Source: Giardia intestinalis (lineage: Eukaryota). Taken from it: DNA of 64,000 nt. Location: assembly GCA_000002435.2 (NCBI GenBank), contig CM018793.1; one strand, written 5' to 3'. The position numbers were made by a program, and so were the translations under genes. The notes below the pieces were generated by a model, which worked only from the letters and a program-made list of their open reading frames with translations, was not told the DNA's origin and did no database searches. This document shows, in pieces, positions 1 through 51,734 of the stretch; position 1 is the first letter of the stretch, and each line of letters starts with the position of its first letter.

Positions 1-3000
1 CATACCATCATTGCGCACAAGATCTGCTTCCTTGTCGATCAATAGCTTCACTGCACGCATATTTCCCTGCTGTGCTGCAAACATAAGGGCTGACCAACCG
101 TCCCTGTTCTGTTTTCCGCTTTGAATTAGGTAGGCTTTGATGTCGGCCTCATTTCCAAGTGCTACCGCTTGCATTAACCGTGTATTGCCGTACCAGTCGA
201 CCAGGTCTGTCAGAATAACTTGTTGACCAATCGTATTAGGAATGGAGGTGCGAGGACTGGAGACAGGGGTAATTACATCGGGAAGATATCCAACAGAGCC
301 CATAATTCCCTGCAATCGCTCTTCTTGTTCGTTATAGGCTTGTGATTTGGCTAAATATGCTTTTTTATATCGCTTTACCTCACCCCGCAAGTCTTCGACT
401 TCTTGCACTAAAGCATCAGATAGACTTACATCTGAACCTAGGTGGTGAAGGTCAGTCAAGGTCAAGCCATTGCTAGGTAAAACAGGATTAGTCTTATCTG
501 GTTCAGCAAATTGTTTGGCCTTTAGCTCAGCTATAGCGGACGATAAAGCAGAATTTTCAGCCTGAAGCCTCAAACGCGCATCCTCTGACTCACGTAACTG
601 TATGGCTTTTCGAAGGTATCCTGATTTGTACTTAAATACTCTGTCCTTTAACTCTTTTTCCGATAACGGGTTGATGTTCGACCTAGCATAATCAGCTTTT
701 GTAAGACGCAATAGAGCATTATCTTTGCGAAGATCCTCTAGTTCTCGTTGCAGTTCGGCAAGTGTGGGCTCGTGAGCCCTATCATGCAGGGATGACGAAT
801 GTGTAGCAAGGAATAAGTCATCGACAGGTTTAGATTCATCGGAGACCTTCTGTGCCAGGACGTCCCCGGTGGGCTGGGAGAGCAGGGCCTCCTGGAGGCG
901 CTTGATCTCGCGGTCCTTCTCGGCCAGGAGCGCGTCGTAGTCGGTGGTGGTCTGGGCCAGGCGCGGGCTCGCGGCTCCGCTAGCGACGGCGTCCTCGAGG
1001 CGCTTGCTGAGGCCTTCGTTCTCCTTGACCTTTTCTGCCAGTCGGCCAAGGGCGCTTTGGATTGCAGCCCGGTCTGCCTGCTCGTTGGCGCGCAGCTGCT
1101 GCCGGAGATCGTCCAGCGCCTGCTGGTGCCGGGCTTCGTCGGCTGCGCGAGCCTCTTCCGCGGCCCGGAGAAGGGCAGGATAGTCAATGGCGGGCTCGGC
1201 GGCTGCGGCCTGGAGGCGGGCAAGCTCTTCGTCACGGGCTTGGAGGGCCTCTTCAAGGGCCTGGATTCGGGCTGCTGCCCCGGGCTCTTCGGATTCGAGA
1301 GATCTCGGGTCCTGGGCGGCGAGCCTCTCCTGAAGCCTGGAGATCTCGGCGTTCTTCCGTTCGGCATCTGTCCTTGCTTCCGCAGCGGCATCTTCTAGAG
1401 CCCGGATGCGAGCCGTAAGTCCATCAATGGTAACTGGCAATTCGCCCTCGGCGCTTGCAGATTCCACACCCTGGACGATATTGCCCATGAGTTGTGTAAC
1501 CAGGCTGCCGTTGTCCTGAACCTTGTCGGCGAGCTGGTTGATAGCTGTTTGCAGACCATCTGCAGGAGACCGCGTTGCAGAAAGTGCGTCTCTGAGTTGG
1601 GCAATCTCGTCGTCCTTCTGTGCCAGGACGTCCCCGGTGGGCTGGGAGAGCAGGGCCTCCTGGAGGCGCTTGATCTCGCGGTCCTTCTCGGCCAGGAGCG
1701 CGTCGTAGTCGGTGGTGGTCTGGGCCAGGCGCGGGCTCGCGGCTCCGCTAGCGACGGCGTCCTCGAGGCGCTTGCTGAGGCCTTCGTTCTCCTTGACCTT
1801 TTCTGCCAGTCGGCCAAGGGCGCTTTGGATTGCAGCCCGGTCTGCCTGCTCGTTGGCGCGCAGCTGCTGCCGGAGATCGTCCAGCGCCTGCTGGTGCCGG
1901 GCTTCGTCGGCTGCGCGAGCCTCTTCCGCGGCCCGGAGAAGGGCAGGATAGTCAATGGCGGGCTCGGCGGCTGCGGCCTGGAGGCGGGCAAGCTCTTCGT
2001 CACGGGCTTGGAGGGCCTCTTCAAGGGCCTGGATTCGGGCTGCTGCCCCGGGCTCTTCGGATTCGAGAGATCTCGGGTCCTGGGCGGCGAGCCTCTCCTG
2101 AAGCCTGGAGATCTCGGCGTTCTTCCGTTCGGCATCTGTCCTTGCTTCCGCAGCGGCATCTTCTAGAGCCCGGATGCGAGCCGTAAGTCCATCAATGGTA
2201 ACTGGCAATTCGCCCTCGGCGCTTGCAGATTCCACACCCTGGACGATATTGCCCATGAGTTGTGTAACCAGGCTGCCGTTGTCCTGAACCTTGTCGGCGA
2301 GCTGGTTGATAGCTGTTTGCAGACCATCTGCAGGAGACCGCGTTGCAGAAAGTGCGTCTCTGAGTTGGGCAATCTCGTCGTCCTTCTGTGCCAGGACGTC
2401 CCCGGTGGGCTGGGAGAGCAGGGCCTCCTGGAGGCGCTTGATCTCGCGGTCCTTCTCGGCCAGGAGCGCGTCGTAGTCGGTGGTGGTCTGGGCCAGGCGC
2501 GGGCTCGCGGCTCCGCTAGCGACGGCGTCCTCGAGGCGCTTGCTGAGGCCTTCGTTCTCCTTGACCTTTTCTGCCAGTCGGCCAAGGGCGCTTTGGATTG
2601 CAGCCCGGTCTGCCTGCTCGTTGGCGCGCAGCTGCTGCCGGAGATCGTCCAGCGCCTGCTGGTGCCGGGCTTCGTCGGCTGCGCGAGCCTCTTCCGCGGC
2701 CCGGAGAAGGGCAGGATAGTCAATGGCGGGCTCGGCGGCTGCGGCCTGGAGGCGGGCAAGCTCTTCGTCACGGGCTTGGAGGGCCTCTTCAAGGGCCTGG
2801 ATTCGGGCTGCTGCCCCGGGCTCTTCGGATTCGAGAGATCTCGGGTCCTGGGCGGCGAGCCTCTCCTGAAGCCTGGAGATCTCGGCGTTCTTCCGTTCGG
2901 CATCTGTCCTTGCTTCCGCAGCGGCATCTTCTAGAGCCCGGATGCGAGCCGTAAGTCCATCAATGGTAACTGGCAATTCGCCCTCGGCGCTTGCAGATTC

Positions 3001-6000
3001 CACACCCTGGACGATATTGCCCATGAGTTGTGTAACCAGGCTGCCGTTGTCCTGAACCTTGTCGGCGAGCTGGTTGATAGCTGTTTGCAGACCATCTGCA
3101 GGAGACCGCGTTGCAGAAAGTGCGTCTCTGAGTTGGGCAATCTCGTCGTCCTTCTGTGCCAGGACGTCCCCGGTGGGCTGGGAGAGCAGGGCCTCCTGGA
3201 GGCGCTTGATCTCGCGGTCCTTCTCGGCCAGGAGCGCGTCGTAGTCGGTGGTGGTCTGGGCCAGGCGCGGGCTCGCGGCTCCGCTAGCGACGGCGTCCTC
3301 GAGGCGCTTGCTGAGGCCTTCGTTCTCCTTGACCTTTTCTGCCAGTCGGCCAAGGGCGCTTTGGATTGCAGCCCGGTCTGCCTGCTCGTTGGCGCGCAGC
3401 TGCTGCCGGAGATCGTCCAGCGCCTGCTGGTGCCGGGCTTCGTCGGCTGCGCGAGCCTCTTCCGCGGCCCGGAGAAGGGCAGGATAGTCAATGGCGGGCT
3501 CGGCGGCTGCGGCCTGGAGGCGGGCAAGCTCTTCGTCACGGGCTTGGAGGGCCTCTTCAAGGGCCTGGATTCGGGCTGCTGCCCCGGGCTCTTCGGATTC
3601 GAGAGATCTCGGGTCCTGGGCGGCGAGCCTCTCCTGAAGCCTGGAGATCTCGGCGTTCTTCCGTTCGGCATCTGTCCTTGCTTCCGCAGCGGCATCTTCT
3701 AGAGCCCGGATGCGAGCCGTAAGTCCATCAATGGTAACTGGCAATTCGCCCTCGGCGCTTGCAGATTCCACACCCTGGACGATATTGCCCATGAGTTGTG
3801 TAACCAGGCTGCCGTTGTCCTGAACCTTGTCGGCGAGCTGGTTGATAGCTGTTTGCAGACCATCTGCAGGAGACCGCGTTGCAGAAAGTGCGTCTCTGAG
3901 TTGGGCAATCTCGTCGTCCTTCTGTGCCAGGACGTCCCCGGTGGGCTGGGAGAGCAGGGCCTCCTGGAGGCGCTTGATCTCGCGGTCCTTCTCGGCCAGG
4001 AGCGCGTCGTAGTCGGTGGTGGTCTGGGCCAGGCGCGGGCTCGCGGCTCCGCTAGCGACGGCGTCCTCGAGGCGCTTGCTGAGGCCTTCGTTCTCCTTGA
4101 CCTTTTCTGCCAGTCGGCCAAGGGCGCTTTGGATTGCAGCCCGGTCTGCCTGCTCGTTGGCGCGCAGCTGCTGCCGGAGATCGTCCAGCGCCTGCTGGTG
4201 CCGGGCTTCGTCGGCTGCGCGAGCCTCTTCCGCGGCCCGGAGAAGGGCAGGATAGTCAATGGCGGGCTCGGCGGCTGCGGCCTGGAGGCGGGCAAGCTCT
4301 TCGTCACGGGCTTGGAGGGCCTCTTCAAGGGCCTGGATTCGGGCTGCTGCCCCGGGCTCTTCGGATTCGAGAGATCTCGGGTCCTGGGCGGCGAGCCTCT
4401 CCTGAAGCCTGGAGATCTCGGCGTTCTTCCGTTCGGCATCTGTCCTTGCTTCCGCAGCGGCATCTTCTAGAGCCCGGATGCGAGCCGTAAGTCCATCAAT
4501 GGTAACTGGCAATTCGCCCTCGGCGCTTGCAGATTCCACACCCTGGACGATATTGCCCATGAGTTGTGTAACCAGGCTGCCGTTGTCCTGAACCTTGTCG
4601 GCGAGCTGGTTGATAGCTGTTTGCAGACCATCTGCAGGAGACCGCGTTGCAGAAAGTGCGTCTCTGAGTTGGGCAATCTCGTCGTCCTTCTGTGCCAGGA
4701 CGTCCCCGGTGGGCTGGGAGAGCAGGGCCTCCTGGAGGCGCTTGATCTCGCGGTCCTTCTCGGCCAGGAGCGCGTCGTAGTCGGTGGTGGTCTGGGCCAG
4801 GCGCGGGCTCGCGGCTCCGCTAGCGACGGCGTCCTCGAGGCGCTTGCTGAGGCCTTCGTTCTCCTTGACCTTTTCTGCCAGTCGGCCAAGGGCGCTTTGG
4901 ATTGCAGCCCGGTCTGCCTGCTCGTTGGCGCGCAGCTGCTGCCGGAGATCGTCCAGCGCCTGCTGGTGCCGGGCTTCGTCGGCTGCGCGAGCCTCTTCCG
5001 CGGCCCGGAGAAGGGCAGGATAGTCAATGGCGGGCTCGGCGGCTGCGGCCTGGAGGCGGGCAAGCTCTTCGTCACGGGCTTGGAGGGCCTCTTCAAGGGC
5101 CTGGATTCGGGCTGCTGCCCCGGGCTCTTCGGATTCGAGAGATCTCGGGTCCTGGGCGGCGAGCCTCTCCTGAAGCCTGGAGATCTCGGCGTTCTTCCGT
5201 TCGGCATCTGTCCTTGCTTCCGCAGCGGCATCTTCTAGAGCCCGGATGCGAGCCGTAAGTCCATCAATGGTAACTGGCAATTCGCCCTCGGCGCTTGCAG
5301 ATTCCACACCCTGGACGATATTGCCCATGAGTTGTGTAACCAGGCTGCCGTTGTCCTGAACCTTGTCGGCGAGCTGGTTGATAGCTGTTTGCAGACCATC
5401 TGCAGGAGACCGCGTTGCAGAAAGTGCGTCTCTGAGTTGGGCAATCTCGTCGTCCTTCTGTGCCAGGACGTCCCCGGTGGGCTGGGAGAGCAGGGCCTCC
5501 TGGAGGCGCTTGATCTCGCGGTCCTTCTCGGCCAGGAGCGCGTCGTAGTCGGTGGTGGTCTGGGCCAGGCGCGGGCTCGCGGCTCCGCTAGCGACGGCGT
5601 CCTCGAGGCGCTTGCTGAGGCCTTCGTTCTCCTTGACCTTTTCTGCCAGTCGGCCAAGGGCGCTTTGGATTGCAGCCCGGTCTGCCTGCTCGTTGGCGCG
5701 CAGCTGCTGCCGGAGATCGTCCAGCGCCTGCTGGTGCCGGGCTTCGTCGGCTGCGCGAGCCTCTTCCGCGGCCCGGAGAAGGGCAGGATAGTCAATGGCG
5801 GGCTCGGCGGCTGCGGCCTGGAGGCGGGCAAGCTCTTCGTCACGGGCTTGGAGGGCCTCTTCAAGGGCCTGGATTCGGGCTGCTGCCCCGGGCTCTTCGG
5901 ATTCGAGAGATCTCGGGTCCTGGGCGGCGAGCCTCTCCTGAAGCCTGGAGATCTCGGCGTTCTTCCGTTCGGCATCTGTCCTTGCTTCCGCAGCGGCATC

Positions 6001-9000
6001 TTCTAGAGCCCGGATGCGAGCCGTAAGTCCATCAATGGTAACTGGCAATTCGCCCTCGGCGCTTGCAGATTCCACACCCTGGACGATATTGCCCATGAGT
6101 TGTGTAACCAGGCTGCCGTTGTCCTGAACCTTGTCGGCGAGCTGGTTGATAGCTGTTTGCAGACCATCTGCAGGAGACCGCGTTGCAGAAAGTGCGTCTC
6201 TGAGTTGGGCAATCTCGTCGTCCTTCTGTGCCAGGACGTCCCCGGTGGGCTGGGAGAGCAGGGCCTCCTGGAGGCGCTTGATCTCGCGGTCCTTCTCGGC
6301 CAGGAGCGCGTCGTAGTCGGTGGTGGTCTGGGCCAGGCGCGGGCTCGCGGCTCCGCTAGCGACGGCGTCCTCGAGGCGCTTGCTGAGGCCTTCGTTCTCC
6401 TTGACCTTTTCTGCCAGTCGGCCAAGGGCGCTTTGGATTGCAGCCCGGTCTGCCTGCTCGTTGGCGCGCAGCTGCTGCCGGAGATCGTCCAGCGCCTGCT
6501 GGTGCCGGGCTTCGTCGGCTGCGCGAGCCTCTTCCGCGGCCCGGAGAAGGGCAGGATAGTCAATGGCGGGCTCGGCGGCTGCGGCCTGGAGGCGGGCAAG
6601 CTCTTCGTCACGGGCTTGGAGGGCCTCTTCAAGGGCCTGGATTCGGGCTGCTGCCCCGGGCTCTTCGGATTCGAGAGATCTCGGGTCCTGGGCGGCGAGC
6701 CTCTCCTGAAGCCTGGAGATCTCGGCGTTCTTCCGTTCGGCATCTGTCCTTGCTTCCGCAGCGGCATCTTCTAGAGCCCGGATGCGAGCCGTAAGTCCAT
6801 CAATGGTAACTGGCAATTCGCCCTCGGCGCTTGCAGATTCCACACCCTGGACGATATTGCCCATGAGTTGTGTAACCAGGCTGCCGTTGTCCTGAACCTT
6901 GTCGGCGAGCTGGTTGATAGCTGTTTGCAGACCATCTGCAGGAGACCGCGTTGCAGAAAGTGCGTCTCTGAGTTGGGCAATCTCGTCGTCCTTCTGTGCC
7001 AGGACGTCCCCGGTGGGCTGGGAGAGCAGGGCCTCCTGGAGGCGCTTGATCTCGCGGTCCTTCTCGGCCAGGAGCGCGTCGTAGTCGGTGGTGGTCTGGG
7101 CCAGGCGCGGGCTCGCGGCTCCGCTAGCGACGGCGTCCTCGAGGCGCTTGCTGAGGCCTTCGTTCTCCTTGACCTTTTCTGCCAGTCGGCCAAGGGCGCT
7201 TTGGATTGCAGCCCGGTCTGCCTGCTCGTTGGCGCGCAGCTGCTGCCGGAGATCGTCCAGCGCCTGCTGGTGCCGGGCTTCGTCGGCTGCGCGAGCCTCT
7301 TCCGCGGCCCGGAGAAGGGCAGGATAGTCAATGGCGGGCTCGGCGGCTGCGGCCTGGAGGCGGGCAAGCTCTTCGTCACGGGCTTGGAGGGCCTCTTCAA
7401 GGGCCTGGATTCGGGCTGCTGCCCCGGGCTCTTCGGATTCGAGAGATCTCGGGTCCTGGGCGGCGAGCCTCTCCTGAAGCCTGGAGATCTCGGCGTTCTT
7501 CCGTTCGGCATCTGTCCTTGCTTCCGCAGCGGCATCTTCTAGAGCCCGGATGCGAGCCGTAAGTCCATCAATGGTAACTGGCAATTCGCCCTCGGCGCTT
7601 GCAGATTCCACACCCTGGACGATATTGCCCATGAGTTGTGTAACCAGGCTGCCGTTGTCCTGAACCTTGTCGGCGAGCTGGTTGATAGCTGTTTGCAGAC
7701 CATCTGCAGGAGACCGCGTTGCAGAAAGTGCGTCTCTGAGTTGGGCAATCTCGTCGTCCTTCTGTGCCAGGACGTCCCCGGTGGGCTGGGAGAGCAGGGC
7801 CTCCTGGAGGCGCTTGATCTCGCGGTCCTTCTCGGCCAGGAGCGCGTCGTAGTCGGTGGTGGTCTGGGCCAGGCGCGGGCTCGCGGCTCCGCTAGCGACG
7901 GCGTCCTCGAGGCGCTTGCTGAGGCCTTCGTTCTCCTTGACCTTTTCTGCCAGTCGGCCAAGGGCGCTTTGGATTGCAGCCCGGTCTGCCTGCTCGTTGG
8001 CGCGCAGCTGCTGCCGGAGATCGTCCAGCGCCTGCTGGTGCCGGGCTTCGTCGGCTGCGCGAGCCTCTTCCGCGGCCCGGAGAAGGGCAGGATAGTCAAT
8101 GGCGGGCTCGGCGGCTGCGGCCTGGAGGCGGGCAAGCTCTTCGTCACGGGCTTGGAGGGCCTCTTCAAGGGCCTGGATTCGGGCTGCTGCCCCGGGCTCT
8201 TCGGATTCGAGAGATCTCGGGTCCTGGGCGGCGAGCCTCTCCTGAAGCCTGGAGATCTCATCGTCCTTTCGCGCTAATACGTCACTGATGGGTTGAGAGA
8301 GAAGCAAATCATTCAAGTTCATTTTGGAGGATTGAATATCATATGCAGGAGTAGGAGCCATTCCCAACATAACTTCATCTAGTAAGTTGTGGTTTGGCGT
8401 ATAAGGAATTGAGGAGGATATATTGATACACAGGTTTCTCAACCGATCGATTTCTTTATCGCGCTCTTTGAGAAGCTTATGAAATTGGGCCCTTATTTCA
8501 TTGACATCATCTGAAGAAAAGTCAGTATCAGGCATAGAAAGAGGAGCTAGAGACACACCGTATGTTGAGATAAGAAGCTCCCTAAAGCAGTTCATTCCAT
8601 CCCTAATATCGATTGGATACTCGGTATTCTTAAAAGAGTGGTAATCGGCGAACGTCTGATAAATGTTCAACAGGTCGTCACGCAAATCTTCTTTATGATC
8701 ACCAGAAGTAAGTGCTGTATCGACTTTATCAGAATAATCCATCAGCAGTTTTCGACAAACCAGCGGGGCAAGAGTAGGCTGCACACATGTCCCATACACC
8801 GGTACGGATGTTCGACTAAGAAATTGCAATTCAACCTCATCCTGGTTTGTGAGGGTGAAGTCTGTTATGCGCTTTGTTCCACATCTATTTGTCGATGTCA
8901 CGAACTGCTCAAGTATCTGCTTAGCATATGCAAGGTATTCTCTGATATCAGTGTCGGCATTGGAAGCTGCATCACCTAATAAGCGTTGACAGCAGAAGAT

Positions 9001-9828
9001 AGCCCATGTATAATTTTCTTCTACGAGATTCTGCGCTCTGTAACGCGTACAGGCAAGAGAGGCTATATTGATGTAGAGCAAATCTGATCGTATGTCGGCA
9101 AGATCAAGAATAGATTCGCTTATAGCGAAAAGGCCTTTACAAACAAGACTATCTGGCTGCGAACGATGTACAGCAACCTTTTTATAAAGCTTCGAAGCCT
9201 GCTGCCTGTACCTGGTCACCGAGTCATGTTCTTCGGTTAATTCTGGGCTAGTTGAGATAAGGTCCATGGCGAGTGCCCTGCTAAAGTGTTCTAGAGCCTG
9301 TAATACGTCACGGTTTAAGAGGGTTCCATCTAAAGTGGAAAACGTGCTATCGACTTGCTGCAATGTTTCAGAAATCATGTTTGCCGCTTGCAAAATATAT
9401 CCTACTGAATGGTGAATAGCTTTGGCATTGGAGGCAGCGAGTGTGTAACACGCAGACACGGTGTTATATAACAGTGCTACAATATCCAGTAAAACACTAT
9501 TTGCAATTATGGTGAGTGAAGATCCAGTGGACCATATCAGCATGGCCTGTTCAGAGGGCGCTTTAATTTCGGGGCTCTCCCAGGGAAGCATGAACAAGAG
9601 ATCCTTGGCAAGAAGATAGCATTCATAGACAGTATCCATATGAATAGACATGTCAAAGCTGGCTAATATCTTCCGCTTTTCCTTCAACCTTCTAATTACA
9701 TTAGAGATGAGTTCCACAGCCCCTGAAGGGAATATTTGGACCGTAGCTTCTAGCACTGAATAAAAGGACCCATCGTCCTGGGGTTCTAATGGGGGAAGAG
9801 AAGGAATGACGGGCGGTGGCGCGTTCAT
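1..9828 (-). CDS. Giant coiled-coil protein, 3' partial (C-terminus beyond window start). It has a unique ~520-aa N-terminal head (9828->8260), then 9.65 identical 256-aa Ala/Glu/Leu/Arg-rich coiled-coil repeats, then a unique coiled coil (845->~250), then an ankyrin repeat ('GWSALMFAAQQGNMRAVKLLIDKEADLVRNDGM') at 1-130.
   Basis: My translation of the minus strand from ATG 9828..9826 (plus 'cat') found no stop through the head, the whole repeat array and the 3' unique part to position 1. The ORF track lists no long ORF here only because the stop lies off-window. An A/T-rich initiator 'aaaaatttaaaaaattcggagattgATG' precedes the start. The repeat frame reads '...LAQKDDEIAQLRDALSATRSP...DREIKRLQEALLSQPTGDV...'. 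Confidence 0.8.
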   Translation of the reverse strand, partial: MNAPPPVIPSLPPLEPQDDGSFYSVLEATVQIFPSGAVELISNVIRRLKEKRKILASFDMSIHMDTVYECYLLAKDLLFMLPWESPEIKAPSEQAMLIWSTGSSLTIIANSVLLDIVALLYNTVSACYTLAASNAKAIHHSVGYILQAANMISETLQQVDSTFSTLDGTLLNRDVLQALEHFSRALAMDLISTSPELTEEHDSVTRYRQQASKLYKKVAVHRSQPDSLVCKGLFAISESILDLADIRSDLLYINIASLACTRYRAQNLVEENYTWAIFCCQRLLGDAASNADTDIREYLAYAKQILEQFVTSTNRCGTKRITDFTLTNQDEVELQFLSRTSVPVYGTCVQPTLAPLVCRKLLMDYSDKVDTALTSGDHKEDLRDDLLNIYQTFADYHSFKNTEYPIDIRDGMNCFRELLISTYGVSLAPLSMPDTDFSSDDVNEIRAQFHKLLKERDKEIDRLRNLCINISSSIPYTPNHNLLDEVMLGMAPTPAYDIQSSKMNLNDLLLSQPISDVLARKDDEISRLQERLAAQDPRSLESEEPGAAARIQALEEALQARDEELARLQAAAAEPAIDYPALLRAAEEARAADEARHQQALDDLRQQLRANEQADRAAIQSALGRLAEKVKENEGLSKRLEDAVASGAASPRLAQTTTDYDALLAEKDREIKRLQEALLSQPTGDVLAQKDDEIAQLRDALSATRSPADGLQTAINQLADKVQDNGSLVTQLMGNIVQGVESASAEGELPVTIDGLTARIRALEDAAAEARTDAERKNAEISRLQERLAAQDPRSLESEEPGAAARIQALEEALQARDEELARLQAAAAEPAIDYPALLRAAEEARAADEARHQQALDDLRQQLRANEQADRAAIQSALGRLAEKVKENEGLSKRLEDAVASGAASPRLAQTTTDYDALLAEKDREIKRLQEALLSQPTGDVLAQKDDEIAQLRDALSATRSPADGLQTAINQLADKVQDNGSLVTQLMGNIVQGVESASAEGELPVTIDGLTARIRALEDAAAEARTDAERKNAEISRLQERLAAQDPRSLESEEPGAAARIQALEEALQARDEELARLQAAAAEPAIDYPALLRAAEEARAADEARHQQALDDLRQQLRANEQADRAAIQSALGRLAEKVKENEGLSKRLEDAVASGAASPRLAQTTTDYDALLAEKDREIKRLQEALLSQPTGDVLAQKDDEIAQLRDALSATRSPADGLQTAINQLADKVQDNGSLVTQLMGNIVQGVESASAEGELPVTIDGLTARIRALEDAAAEARTDAERKNAEISRLQERLAAQDPRSLESEEPGAAARIQALEEALQARDEELARLQAAAAEPAIDYPALLRAAEEARAADEARHQQALDDLRQQLRANEQADRAAIQSALGRLAEKVKENEGLSKRLEDAVASGAASPRLAQTTTDYDALLAEKDREIKRLQEALLSQPTGDVLAQKDDEIAQLRDALSATRSPADGLQTAINQLADKVQDNGSLVTQLMGNIVQGVESASAEGELPVTIDGLTARIRALEDAAAEARTDAERKNAEISRLQERLAAQDPRSLESEEPGAAARIQALEEALQARDEELARLQAAAAEPAIDYPALLRAAEEARAADEARHQQALDDLRQQLRANEQADRAAIQSALGRLAEKVKENEGLSKRLEDAVASGAASPRLAQTTTDYDALLAEKDREIKRLQEALLSQPTGDVLAQKDDEIAQLRDALSATRSPADGLQTAINQLADKVQDNGSLVTQLMGNIVQGVESASAEGELPVTIDGLTARIRALEDAAAEARTDAERKNAEISRLQERLAAQDPRSLESEEPGAAARIQALEEALQARDEELARLQAAAAEPAIDYPALLRAAEEARAADEARHQQALDDLRQQLRANEQADRAAIQSALGRLAEKVKENEGLSKRLEDAVASGAASPRLAQTTTDYDALLAEKDREIKRLQEALLSQPTGDVLAQKDDEIAQLRDALSATRSPADGLQTAINQLADKVQDNGSLVTQLMGNIVQGVESASAEGELPVTIDGLTARIRALEDAAAEARTDAERKNAEISRLQERLAAQDPRSLESEEPGAAARIQALEEALQARDEELARLQAAAAEPAIDYPALLRAAEEARAADEARHQQALDDLRQQLRANEQADRAAIQSALGRLAEKVKENEGLSKRLEDAVASGAASPRLAQTTTDYDALLAEKDREIKRLQEALLSQPTGDVLAQKDDEIAQLRDALSATRSPADGLQTAINQLADKVQDNGSLVTQLMGNIVQGVESASAEGELPVTIDGLTARIRALEDAAAEARTDAERKNAEISRLQERLAAQDPRSLESEEPGAAARIQALEEALQARDEELARLQAAAAEPAIDYPALLRAAEEARAADEARHQQALDDLRQQLRANEQADRAAIQSALGRLAEKVKENEGLSKRLEDAVASGAASPRLAQTTTDYDALLAEKDREIKRLQEALLSQPTGDVLAQKDDEIAQLRDALSATRSPADGLQTAINQLADKVQDNGSLVTQLMGNIVQGVESASAEGELPVTIDGLTARIRALEDAAAEARTDAERKNAEISRLQERLAAQDPRSLESEEPGAAARIQALEEALQARDEELARLQAAAAEPAIDYPALLRAAEEARAADEARHQQALDDLRQQLRANEQADRAAIQSALGRLAEKVKENEGLSKRLEDAVASGAASPRLAQTTTDYDALLAEKDREIKRLQEALLSQPTGDVLAQKDDEIAQLRDALSATRSPADGLQTAINQLADKVQDNGSLVTQLMGNIVQGVESASAEGELPVTIDGLTARIRALEDAAAEARTDAERKNAEISRLQERLAAQDPRSLESEEPGAAARIQALEEALQARDEELARLQAAAAEPAIDYPALLRAAEEARAADEARHQQALDDLRQQLRANEQADRAAIQSALGRLAEKVKENEGLSKRLEDAVASGAASPRLAQTTTDYDALLAEKDREIKRLQEALLSQPTGDVLAQKVSDESKPVDDLFLATHSSSLHDRAHEPTLAELQRELEDLRKDNALLRLTKADYARSNINPLSEKELKDRVFKYKSGYLRKAIQLRESEDARLRLQAENSALSSAIAELKAKQFAEPDKTNPVLPSNGLTLTDLHHLGSDVSLSDALVQEVEDLRGEVKRYKKAYLAKSQAYNEQEERLQGIMGSVGYLPDVITPVSSPRTSIPNTIGQQVILTDLVDWYGNTRLMQAVALGNEADIKAYLIQSGKQNRDGWSALMFAAQQGNMRAVKLLIDKEADLVRNDGM
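846..8259 (-). repeat. Intragenic tandem array with a 768-bp unit and 9.65 copies at 100% identity (copy boundaries e.g. 847/1615/2383/.../7759). The unit encodes a 256-aa coiled-coil repeat and is about 65% GC against about 45% GC flanks.
   Basis: Exact 768-nt periodicity is visible directly. The ORF track shows identical spurious peptides at offsets of exactly 768. Identity breaks at 845/846 (a vs t) and at 8260 (a vs g). Degenerate older copies of the motif flank the array, e.g. the head-side 'ISDVLARKDDEISRLQERLAAQDPRS'. Confidence 0.95.
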
Positions 9829-9883
9829 CAATCTCCGAATTTTTTAAATTTTTACCGAACAAATTCAAAAGACGTCACTAATG

Positions 9884-49033: not shown

Positions 49034-50539
49034 TCAGTGTCTCCCCAATGACATGGTAACGTCACGCTGAAGAGAAATGGTACGCCCCTGTTTGAGCACA
49101 ACCGTGTTGCTGGCTCTCAGAGCCAGAGAAGCCAAAAACAGAGAGGCTGCCATTCGTCTCGATGATCCGGCTAATTCTGAAATCGAAAGGGGTGCCGAGG
49201 ACTGCCTTAGCATGGACAGCAATGTCAGCCCACTTTCGGGTATACTATCATGTTTATGTGAGTGGCTATCACCCTGTGCTGAAGCTTTTTCATTGAGTGG
49301 CGAGGCTTCACTATAGTCCGGCTCTGGGGGCTCCTCACACCCCACGGGAGTAGTGACCATGCAGTCCTCCTCTGGAAGATCTTCTTGTCTGAAACATTTC
49401 CAATTCTCCGAGACAATGGTCGCTAAGTCATGATACTCTGGCTCAGACCAATTGAAAGTGATATCTGGTTTATTGACTACCTCTTGAATTGGATGCCTAT
49501 CTCTAAAGTCTATGAAGATGGAGGCTACTACTTGATCTGGTGGCCTATACGCATACTTCTGCATAGTACTGTGATGCATACGTGCCTGCTTATCGAAAAG
49601 GAATGATGGGGGTCTGGTTCTCTTTGCAGCGACTGTGGCAGTGCTGCTCTTCTTCGCTGGATTCTTTATCTCTCTAACGGTGACGGTAACATCTGGAAGC
49701 TTGTCAGAGGTATTGGCCAAGAAAAGGCTCGTCAACTTCTGCGAGGCCTCCAGAAATGCGCTGCCAGACACATCAAACGCGTGTTTGGACAGCAAAGAAC
49801 TATGCATGGCATGCCCAGTGACAACCTGGCTTGTATCGAGGTCATTGAGCCCAATTTCAGAGGTGGCACGTACAAGCTCCCCCTCGACCGCACGGACTTG
49901 CATGTCGGCGTCTGAATTATTTGCCAAAGAAATAGAGCCCATCATACTATCATGGAAAGGATCTTGTGATTCTGGATTGGTGAGGGAGAAGGGAACATTT
50001 GTTGCTTTAGAGAATGACAGTAGATCGCTTTCAGTATCTTCTTTCAGTAGATTGGCCCATACACCCCCTGGTAACTGGTGTACAAAATCGAGATTTCTTG
50101 GATATTCTTGGTCTTCGAGGCTGTCCTCTTTAGATTGAGTGCCAAATATGGAAGAGATCAGCGCATTATGCCGAGTAGTCTTATTAGCTACAATGGTAGA
50201 GAAATGTAATGAGAGACCTAGGGCTCGTGGGCCTGCACTCTTGGCCACTGCTGAAGAAGCCTTCCGAGTGGATTTGGCCAAGGACAAAAGCTGGTGCATC
50301 TTACGCGCAACGCTAAGCACAGTGGATGATTTGTATGTTTGTATCAAAACGACACCAGAGAGAATAATGGAAAAATCCTGCAGAGTGCTATAATTTGCTT
50401 TTAAAAGCACTTCTATGAGTGTCGCTAATCGGACGCTTCTAAGAGAAGCGCTTGCAATGTGGCCAGTAAACCCCGATGTCCATACAGTCAGCACTGCGGG
50501 GTTGTCCTGCGCAGACTCCTGCGGCTCGGCCACTGTCAT
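49034..50539 (-). CDS. Hypothetical protein of 501 aa, a candidate divergent Rad21/Rec8-like kleisin.
   Basis: The ATG start is plus 'cat' 50537-50539. The N-terminal segment 'DFSIILSGVVLIQTYKSSTVLSVARKMHQLL' resembles the kleisin N-terminal helix '[30 protein letters not shown]'. The C-terminus 'SSRRMAASLFLASLALRASNTVVLKQ' resembles the kleisin winged-helix 'SRKQAARTFYYLLVL....I.LEQ'. This rests on recalled motifs, not a search. Confidence 0.5.
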   Translation of the reverse strand: MTVAEPQESAQDNPAVLTVWTSGFTGHIASASLRSVRLATLIEVLLKANYSTLQDFSIILSGVVLIQTYKSSTVLSVARKMHQLLSLAKSTRKASSAVAKSAGPRALGLSLHFSTIVANKTTRHNALISSIFGTQSKEDSLEDQEYPRNLDFVHQLPGGVWANLLKEDTESDLLSFSKATNVPFSLTNPESQDPFHDSMMGSISLANNSDADMQVRAVEGELVRATSEIGLNDLDTSQVVTGHAMHSSLLSKHAFDVSGSAFLEASQKLTSLFLANTSDKLPDVTVTVREIKNPAKKSSTATVAAKRTRPPSFLFDKQARMHHSTMQKYAYRPPDQVVASIFIDFRDRHPIQEVVNKPDITFNWSEPEYHDLATIVSENWKCFRQEDLPEEDCMVTTPVGCEEPPEPDYSEASPLNEKASAQGDSHSHKHDSIPESGLTLLSMLRQSSAPLSISELAGSSRRMAASLFLASLALRASNTVVLKQGRTISLQRDVTMSLGRH

Positions 50540-50554
50540 ATTAAAAATTTAACG
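50540..50554. promoter_or_regulatory. A 15-nt A/T-rich bidirectional initiator ('attaaaaatttaacg') between divergent ATGs (kleisin-like on the minus strand, NEK-like pseudokinase on the plus strand).
   Basis: ATGs lie at 50539..50537 (-) and 50555..50557 (+). Confidence 0.45.
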
Positions 50555-51463
50555 ATGCTTAAGCTTCCTGAGTACAGGCATGGGAAAGAGGTTGTGTTGT
50601 CAGCATCAGAGTTTTCCGTTACTTACCGAGCCATCAGACTGAAAGACCTGGCCGATGTTGCTGTGAAAGTAACGGATACCGTGAAGCTGGCGGAATCTGG
50701 GCGTTCAGACTACCGTCACGAGTCTCGAGTACTTCAGAATGCAGTGCATCCGCATATACTGCGCGCTGTGTATGGATACTATGATGAGGAGACCAAGAAG
50801 TTCCTGTTAGAAACAGAGTACTGCCGCGGTGGATCTCTTTGGGGACTAATGGCCTGGATGCGGAAGAGTGATATGCGTTTTTCTGAGCAAGAGGTCTGGG
50901 AACTGTTTGCTCAATTGGTGAGTGCATTGCACTACCTGCATAAGACCAACGAGCACATTGGGATAACTGCGCATTTGAATCTTCGCCCTGACAACGTTCT
51001 TCTTACTCAAGACGGTATTTTGAAACTTTGTGGCTTTGGATATAGCGCTACTAGGGAGCCCAACAAGCTATTTACGCTGCGCAATCCTGGAACCGCCTAT
51101 CATGCCCCCGAGGTTGTAGCATTTACCAACTCTCAAGGTAGTAGTGAGGGGTACACGGAAGCAGCTGATATCTGGAGCCTTGGCTGCATGATTTATGAAC
51201 TCTGCACGTTTAGGCGCATAGAGAATGAGCCTGTATCGTCCTTCAACCCATTACCGGAGAACCTTGAAACACCAGGGTATGCGGATGACCTTCTCATCCT
51301 TATAAAGGCGTGTCTTGCTCCCAACCCCAGGGAGCGAATCACAGCAGAGCTTCTTATGGCCAGTCCCCCAATTCAAGCCGCATACGCTAGAATTAACGAT
51401 ATCTTGAAAGCAGGAAGAAAGTGGTCTGGGCTGATCATAGAGATGCAGCGTGAACTGCGTTAG
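50555..51463 (+). CDS. NEK-like Ser/Thr protein kinase fold, predicted catalytically dead (pseudokinase), ~302 aa.
   Basis: The ORF track start is GTG, so I re-anchored on ATG 50555 (MLKLPEYRHG). Kinase subdomains are present ('AVKV' VAIK-Lys, 'YHAPE', 'DIWSLGC'), but there is no GxGxxG loop, HRD is replaced by HLN ('HLNLRPDNVLL') and DFG by GFG ('LCGFGYS'). Confidence 0.8.
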   Translation: MLKLPEYRHGKEVVLSASEFSVTYRAIRLKDLADVAVKVTDTVKLAESGRSDYRHESRVLQNAVHPHILRAVYGYYDEETKKFLLETEYCRGGSLWGLMAWMRKSDMRFSEQEVWELFAQLVSALHYLHKTNEHIGITAHLNLRPDNVLLTQDGILKLCGFGYSATREPNKLFTLRNPGTAYHAPEVVAFTNSQGSSEGYTEAADIWSLGCMIYELCTFRRIENEPVSSFNPLPENLETPGYADDLLILIKACLAPNPRERITAELLMASPPIQAAYARINDILKAGRKWSGLIIEMQRELR

Positions 51464-51539
51464 AGCACTCAATCATAAATTCATACTGTGCCTGTTCGCT
51501 GTGTTTGTTCATAAGGTAAAGGGCCCCAAAATAAAAATC

Positions 51540-51734
51540 ATGGAGGAGTGGCTATTGACTCTAATTGTGACGTTATCCATTGTTTCGTCGTCGCTTGTTA
51601 GCGCTACAATCTACTATACGGTTCGGTGTATTCGTGCGAAGAGGACTAAGCGCTCACACTCATCATCGCGTTCGCACTCCTCACAGCCGGAGTCTGATAA
51701 GAATGCCAGCGAGAGATCAGACAATATAGACTAA
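51540..51734 (+). CDS. Possible small single-pass membrane protein of 64 aa with a hydrophobic N-terminus and a basic Ser-rich tail.
   Basis: The ATG is preceded by 'ccaaaataaaaatcATG'. The sequence is 'MEEWLLTLIVTLSIVSSSLVSATIYYTVRCIRAKRTKRSHSSSRSHSS...'. It is short, so uncertain. Confidence 0.3.
   Translation: MEEWLLTLIVTLSIVSSSLVSATIYYTVRCIRAKRTKRSHSSSRSHSSQPESDKNASERSDNID

Follow-up and report, generated by a model that had tools for sequence, protein, structure and literature searches.

Does a protein with the fold of a protein kinase, but with the residues of phosphate transfer replaced, persist in a parasite genome as an enzyme of an unusual kind, as a gene in decay, or as a module kept for some other task? 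This question is raised by GL50803_14223, a gene annotated as "Kinase, NEK" in a stretch of 64,000 nucleotides from contig CM018793.1 of Giardia intestinalis (GenBank assembly GCA_000002435.2), hereafter called the window. From its sequence and from that of its relatives, we consider it very probable that its product is a catalytically inert pseudokinase kept for a non-catalytic role.

The reading frame runs on the plus strand from an ATG at 50555 to a TAG at 51461-51463, uninterrupted over 302 codons. The protein is identical, letter for letter, to XP_001709229.1 (KAE8305171.1, UniProt A8B5I4) of Giardia intestinalis WB (ATCC 50803), and is present on 173 contigs of the public collection. The real start is the ATG at 50555, not a GTG at 50459 that a mechanical list of open reading frames (ORFs) gives as the start: all orthologues begin at this ATG, and the stretch 5' of it belongs to a divergent minus-strand gene encoding 500 amino acids (aa). 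The gene is no chance ORF, since its product matches the Pfam Pkinase profile (PF00069) with 130.9 bits against a cut-off of 31.7 (E 7e-38; residues 19-271, profile positions 11-261 of 263), and since it is intact in five lineages with a Nei-Gojobori ratio of nonsynonymous to synonymous substitution rates (dN/dS) of 0.047-0.073 in every pair with estimable dS. This full-length match and a bilobal kinase fold place the protein in the eukaryotic protein kinase (ePK) superfamily.

The identical sequence is listed as G247 / GL50803_14223 / GK252 in Table S1 of Manning et al. (2011, Genome Biol 12:R66; PMC3218828), under Other/Nek/Nek-Unclassified, with an orthology score of 1:1:0, the comment 'Dead Nek - missing D166, D184', and neither ankyrin repeats nor coils; nothing essential differs between GK252 and GL50803_14223. 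Its status as a dead Nek is already known, having been published in 2011. What goes beyond the literature here are selection statistics over five lineages, orthologues in three further lineages, a structural model, the details of the glycine-rich loop (G-loop) and of the K168R replacement, a presumed assemblage B orthologue, a G. muris relative that keeps both aspartates, and the modelled absence of helix alphaG. The preliminary description of the locus, made from the DNA sequence, had called such inactivity typical of an expanded NEK family in Giardia, and published counts agree: 198 Neks are found in WB, and K72, D166 or D184 is missing in 139 of 195 (71%) (PMC3218828). The 'Unclassified' Neks are ancient, mutually divergent, and well conserved between strains (PMC3218828). 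The architecture of 67% of Giardia Neks, with C-terminal TALM-type ankyrin repeats or a coiled coil, is not that of GL50803_14223, in which the Pfam scan and Table S1 of Manning et al. give no ankyrin repeat, no coiled coil, and no second Pfam domain type.

Catalytic and structural residues

The register of the motifs was set by a phmmer alignment to human NEK7, and a protein was operationally counted as a pseudokinase if at least one of K72, D166 and D184 was absent. In this alignment HLN pairs with HRD, GFG with DLG, and LSASEFS with IGRGQFS (Table 1); the top NEK7 match, 8ws1, is an engineered protein that reads HRN instead of HRD. The preliminary description had reported an intact kinase fold (AVKV, alphaC Glu, YHAPE, DIWSLGC) in which HRD had become HLN (within HLNLRPDN) and DFG had become GFG. 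All of these elements are found at their places, YHAPE at 51098-51112, and the NEK7 alignment bears out both changes. N142 lies opposite the HRD Asp of NEK7 and of 121 relatives, and G160 opposite the DFG Asp, both being invariant in the orthologues; the prediction of a pseudokinase was therefore sound by the above definition, and it matches the 'Dead Nek' entry. The further statement that there is no glycine-rich loop holds for the three glycines, replaced by serine (S16, S18, S21), but not for the beta1-beta2 hairpin itself, which is present in our structural model.

An exhaustive HMMER search over 1.84 billion representatives provided the 125 nearest kinase domains, which were aligned with the window's own protein into 126 rows (121 non-orthologous relatives and five rows of 14223 orthologues). 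The four diagnostic positions read K-E-D-D in 96 of the 126 rows. All five orthologue rows read K-E-N-G, and their three G-loop positions are occupied by Ser or Ala (SSS, SSA or ASS, against GGG in 55 of the nearest kinase domains); the combination of K-E-N-G with a loop devoid of glycine occurs only in this orthologue group. The loss is confined to catalytic chemistry: 28 columns reach a conservation of 80% or more in the 121 relatives, the orthologues retain 24 of these, and the other four correspond to HRDxK (R, D and K) and to the DFG Asp, now Gly. The three HRDxK residues are conserved in 91%, 90% and 94% of the 121 nearest domains, and are replaced by invariant L, N and R in the five orthologues. 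The residues on which the fold depends are intact (the His of HRD, the Phe-Gly of DFG, Asn171, GT...APE, the Asp of alphaF, and the Arg that pairs with the APE Glu).

The alignment against NEK domains that had been proposed as a check revealed no catalytic Asp elsewhere in register. The only candidate, D146, was rejected, as it corresponds to the variable E170 of HRDLKP[ED]N, where many active NEKs carry either D or E, and where one orthologue carries Glu. The canonical NEK motifs HRDLKPxN and D[FL]G are thus replaced by HLNLRPDN and GFG, which argues against an active NEK, not against descent from NEKs, being expected of a dead member of the family.

An AlphaFold2 model obtained with the five orthologues alone was discarded (predicted local distance difference test, pLDDT, 33.8), and the prediction was redone with a 59-sequence alignment (model me6404701d1f3; pLDDT 88.2; predicted template modelling score, pTM, 0.89). 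The model shows all canonical elements from beta1 to alphaI, including a beta1-loop-beta2 hairpin (strands 7-17 and 21-28), with the exception of the alphaG helix. The Pro-rich linker between alphaF and alphaH is shorter than that of the fungal NEKs in the alignment, and similar short linkers occur in the G. muris relative discussed below and in A8B6J5, a NEK of G. duodenalis; as judged from the model, alphaG would be absent from GL50803_14223. Structure searches ranked MST2, Aurora A, PhK gamma, PKG and PAK4 above the NEKs, and the model resembles kinases in the active conformation, such as Aurora A-TPX2 and PhK gamma.

Catalytic inactivity is the most likely prediction from these data. Transfer of phosphate would most likely be impossible because of the combined replacement of Asp166 by Asn, Lys168 by Arg, Asp184 by Gly, and the three G-loop glycines by Ser. 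The complete ePK fold is kept, with the beta3 Lys-alphaC Glu pair, HRD His, DFG Phe, Asn171, APE, alphaF Asp and the Arg280 equivalent, which hold it together. By analogy with pseudokinase biology, we infer a scaffolding or allosteric role, in which the protein may serve as an interaction module: it could be a scaffold, regulate a partner allosterically, or act as a decoy for an active NEK or for a complex of the cytoskeleton. The retention of H140 and F161, both residues of the regulatory spine, and of the K38-E56 pair suggests that it could adopt an active-like closed conformation, through which STRADalpha and HER3 engage their partners. More speculatively, the likeliest interaction sites may be the place where alphaG is missing and the conserved helices at the C-terminus, since these are the most distinctive surfaces of the protein. 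CASK (GFG), HER3 (HRN) and STRADalpha likewise combine an intact fold with the lack of the DFG and/or HRD Asp, and act via protein-protein contacts (allosteric activation, scaffolding). However, they belong to unrelated lineages in which degradation was convergent, and CASK and HER3 keep residual activity and carry fewer lesions than GL50803_14223.

Several points weigh against an inert protein with a non-catalytic role. K38, E56 and N147 are retained and invariant, making nucleotide binding possible, and some kinases with single comparable lesions, such as CASK with its GFG and HER3 with its HRN, are weakly or atypically active. A literature search found no functional study or kinase assay of GL50803_14223, and the sole hint of its localisation is co-fractionation in a density gradient, within the range of 'mitosomal distribution' (PMC3044749). 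This hint says little, as giardins, tubulin and several other Neks occupy the same range.

The first of these points would fit an atypical active enzyme of a non-canonical, Mg-independent or metal-independent kind, or a nucleotide-gated conformational switch operating via the Lys-Glu pair and Asn147. The three residues are invariant across the lineages and the 59 relatives (E56 nearly so in the 59-sequence alignment), the likeness of the model to active-conformation kinases is compatible with such an activity, and CASK (GFG), HER3 (HRN) and WNK provide precedents. However, these precedents carry only one or two such lesions, whereas here all three glycines of the G-loop have been replaced along with the residues at four catalytic positions; moreover, no substitute acidic residue lies in register, and the ribose-contacting Asp of the NEK motif GGDL is replaced by Ser (GGSL). 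We consequently regard an atypical activity as improbable, and retain the catalytically inert pseudokinase as the preferred reading.

Table 1. Positions in the window of GL50803_14223, of its kinase motifs and predicted structural regions, and of the spacer upstream of it.
Feature	Position	Strand	Remarks
Complete coding sequence of GL50803_14223	50555..51463	+	302 aa and TAG stop; stand-alone kinase-fold protein
G-loop equivalent L15-V22, LSASEFSV	50597..50620	+	Aligned with NEK7 IGRGQFSE; Ser at all three Gly positions (S16, S18, S21)
beta3 Lys K38 in VAVK, kept	50666..50668	+	VALK in NEK7; invariant in the 59-sequence alignment and the orthologues
alphaC Glu E56, kept	50720..50722	+	Pairs with the NEK7 alphaC Glu; nearly invariant in the 59-sequence alignment
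Catalytic loop H140-N147, HLNLRPDN	50972..50995	+	HRD Arg to Leu, catalytic Asp to Asn, Lys168 to Arg; His and Asn171 kept
GFG (G160-G162) in place of DFG	51032..51040	+	Mg-binding Asp to Gly; Phe and Gly kept; invariant in the orthologues
P+1 / APE segment GTAYHAPE (G179-E186), kept	51089..51112	+	G179, T180, Y182, P185 and E186 invariant or nearly so in the 59-sequence alignment
alphaF DIWSLGC with structural Asp D205, kept	51167..51187	+	From alignments of relatives
alphaG region, residues 219-243	51209..51283	+	Pro-rich coil, no helix in the AlphaFold2 model; low confidence at 225-229
R261, partner of the APE Glu (PKA R280 equivalent), kept	51335..51337	+	95% conserved among relatives; invariant in the orthologues
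C-terminal extension, residues 271-301	51365..51457	+	Two predicted helices (271-286, 293-301); invariant motif KWSGL.IEMQRE; no Pfam domain
A/T-rich spacer ATTAAAAATTTAACG, 15 bp	50540..50554	.	Separates the ATG of the divergent 500-aa gene (-) from that of the NEK gene (+)

Relationship to the NEK family

The preliminary description called the protein NEK-like, and its nearest neighbours are indeed NEKs, but a direct match to solved kinases is not decisive: NEK7 scores 83.5 bits (E 1e-22), only 3 bits over MELK (80.5), followed by NEK1 (73.5) and SLK (71.3). In the exhaustive search, the orthologue cluster (674 bits) was followed by single-domain proteins at about 126 bits, and the nearest named relatives were "Kinase, NEK" of G. 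muris and G. duodenalis, "NEK protein kinase" of Spizellomyces, and a "G2-specific" (NIMA-type) kinase of Allomyces. A profile built from the orthologues and the 54 nearest single-domain matches, and dominated by these neighbours, scored 454 bits with NEK2, 376 with NEK1 and 364 with NEK7, against 278 for the best non-NEK, MST3. A 'NEK-related' label appears reasonable, resting on the nearest relatives and not on a decisive direct match. Human NEK7, NEK2 and NEK1, which by sequence rank among the best PDB matches, share with GL50803_14223 the ePK fold and the motifs MEYC.GG.L, GT.Y..PE and DIWSLGC. In contrast, the human NEKs are active and display HRDLKPxN, D[FL]G and a GxGxxG/S loop where GL50803_14223 has HLNLRPDN, GFG and SASEFS, and its alphaF-alphaH linker is shorter than theirs, with no modelled alphaG helix.

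The closeness of the scores against solved kinases, the ranking of MST2, Aurora A, PhK gamma, PKG and PAK4 ahead of NEKs in fold searches, and a 2025 re-annotation that argues that most Giardia 'Neks' lack a confident family assignment (PMC12538575) would all suit a 'non-core' protein with a kinase fold, specific to Giardia, that owes its NEK label to an artefact of family-wide annotation. Yet NEK/NIMA kinases from both Giardia and fungi are the nearest named relatives found in the exhaustive search, and the neighbourhood profile clearly places NEK2, NEK1 and NEK7 above MST3, which leaves little probability for a non-NEK origin and favours a pseudokinase related to NEKs.

The best full-length single-domain match outside G. 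duodenalis is a G. muris protein of 292 aa (TNJ29886.1, 'Kinase, NEK'; P0031 in our search; 126 bits, 34% identity). Like GL50803_14223, it consists of one stand-alone kinase domain (about 300 aa) that starts from residue 1, with a degenerate G-loop (EISAYG) and an LKLC-FG context; unlike it, it keeps both HRD (VVHRDVKPEN) and DFG (LCDFG). It was sister to the 14223 clade (bootstrap value about 42 of 100) in a neighbor-joining tree of the 125 nearest matches, nearly all of them NEK-like. Its locus is not syntenic. When its 16 neighbours were compared with the window by tblastn, only the kinase matched, and it is not a reciprocal best match among the fetched proteins. The two aspartates may have been lost from an active NEK after the split between G. 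muris and G. duodenalis, a scenario that we put forward as tentative and would not call probable, though it is likelier than an atypical activity; if true, it would represent a datable transition from kinase to pseudokinase.

Within Giardia, the only dead Nek localised by Manning et al. is Orf_15409, Nek-Unclassified and inactive like GL50803_14223, which was diffusely cytoplasmic and not cytoskeletal (PMC3218828). It differs in having four ankyrin repeats and high expression, against no repeats and a low signal for GL50803_14223.

Several top matches of the exhaustive search (P0018, P0028, P0025, P0034) are very long proteins with four to nine separate kinase-like stretches, such as P0018, a G. 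muris 'Kinase, NEK' of 2411 aa with six (TNJ28592.1). Such a multi-kinase-domain architecture is unusual.

Orthologues, selection and expression

Orthologues were found in G. lamblia P15 (95% identity), on a contig from SRR21529648 (84%), and in two lineages from ERR33333xx runs (79-84%). All five G. duodenalis lineages (WB and these four) keep HLN, GFG and a loop devoid of glycine. The clinical isolates sequenced in the project that produced SRR21529648 were all of assemblage A or B, and the lineage carrying this orthologue (L001, gene 1007..1930) presumably represents assemblage B. Since an orthologue exists in this presumed assemblage B lineage, the 1:1:0 orthology score of Manning et al., with no orthologue in GS, probably reflects the fragmentary GS draft.

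The dS was 0.56 between WB and P15; in the other pairs it reached or approached saturation. The dN/dS of the adjacent 500-aa gene (0.10-0.19) is higher than that of GL50803_14223, and that of the downstream ankyrin protein (0.04-0.07) is similar. P15 and two other lineages share the gene order (ankyrin protein and 500-aa gene on the minus strand; NEK, 64-aa ORF and ankyrin protein on the plus strand). The strong purifying selection on GL50803_14223 shows that the role of the protein, of whatever kind, matters to the parasite.

At the protein level, two peptides of GL50803_14223 (MASCOT 124) were reported in a gradient-fraction proteome (PMC3044749), and its signal in serial analysis of gene expression (SAGE) is low and without stage regulation (R 2.39; Manning et al., 2011, PMC3218828, Table S1).

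The C-terminal end differs among lineages. In the region 51461..51478, the WB allele has TAG where the other four lineages have CAG (Gln) and run about five residues further (..HQSTQS, then stop). The WB codons past the TAG still read S-T-Q-S-stop, and the TAG looks like a recent nonsense substitution that shortened the C-terminus.

A dead kinase drifting towards a functionless pseudogene could be imagined from the turnover-prone nature of Neks, the 30 kinase pseudogenes reported in WB (PMC3218828), the 1:1:0 score without a GS orthologue, and the loss of the last 5 residues to the WB TAG, but decay is effectively refuted by a dN/dS of 0.05-0.07 with synonymous sites near saturation, and by an ORF that runs without interruption in five lineages (one of them from the project restricted to assemblages A and B), produces detected peptides, and keeps 24 of 28 structural positions.

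Genomic surroundings and significance

The divergent 500-aa hypothetical ORF upstream (49034..50539, minus strand, with its ATG at 50539) is conserved but fast-evolving, with 57-82% identity among G. duodenalis lineages, and no Pfam family was found in it. The arrangement CAT-ATTAAAAATTTAACG-ATG at 50539..50555 leaves only the short A/T-rich spacer of Table 1 between the two start codons. It is conserved in P15 and in one further lineage (L003), which suggests a shared minimal bidirectional promoter or initiator; short A/T-rich initiators occur in Giardia.

Downstream, an ORF of 64 aa (51540..51734, plus strand) encodes one hydrophobic helix and a basic Ser-rich tail, with only a weak, sub-threshold Pfam match. 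It is probably a real small membrane protein, as it is conserved, called as a gene in P15 and in another lineage (L002), and has a dN/dS of about 0.08-0.13. TALM-ankyrin ORFs of the "21.1" type surround the NEK gene, in agreement with the assignment of the window, from the exact protein match, to a chromosome of Giardia assemblage A. At the other end of the window, a tandem repeat with a 768-bp period (627..8306) consists of eight perfectly identical copies and degenerate flanking copies; it was characterised by a script, having been missed by Tandem Repeats Finder, whose period limit is 500. The repeat lies inside a stop-free frame on the minus strand (1..9843, at least 3281 aa) that runs off the start of the window and ends in ankyrin-like sequence, and the frame is predicted to encode a giant repeat-bearing protein of 256-aa units.

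On its own, GL50803_14223 matters little, being one of about 140 predicted dead Neks of Giardia and flagged as such in 2011. The general question is why a minimal parasite keeps many conserved pseudokinases under strong purifying selection. Small, free of repeats and well conserved, GL50803_14223 would be a convenient representative for studies of the binding partners and the nucleotide binding of these proteins.
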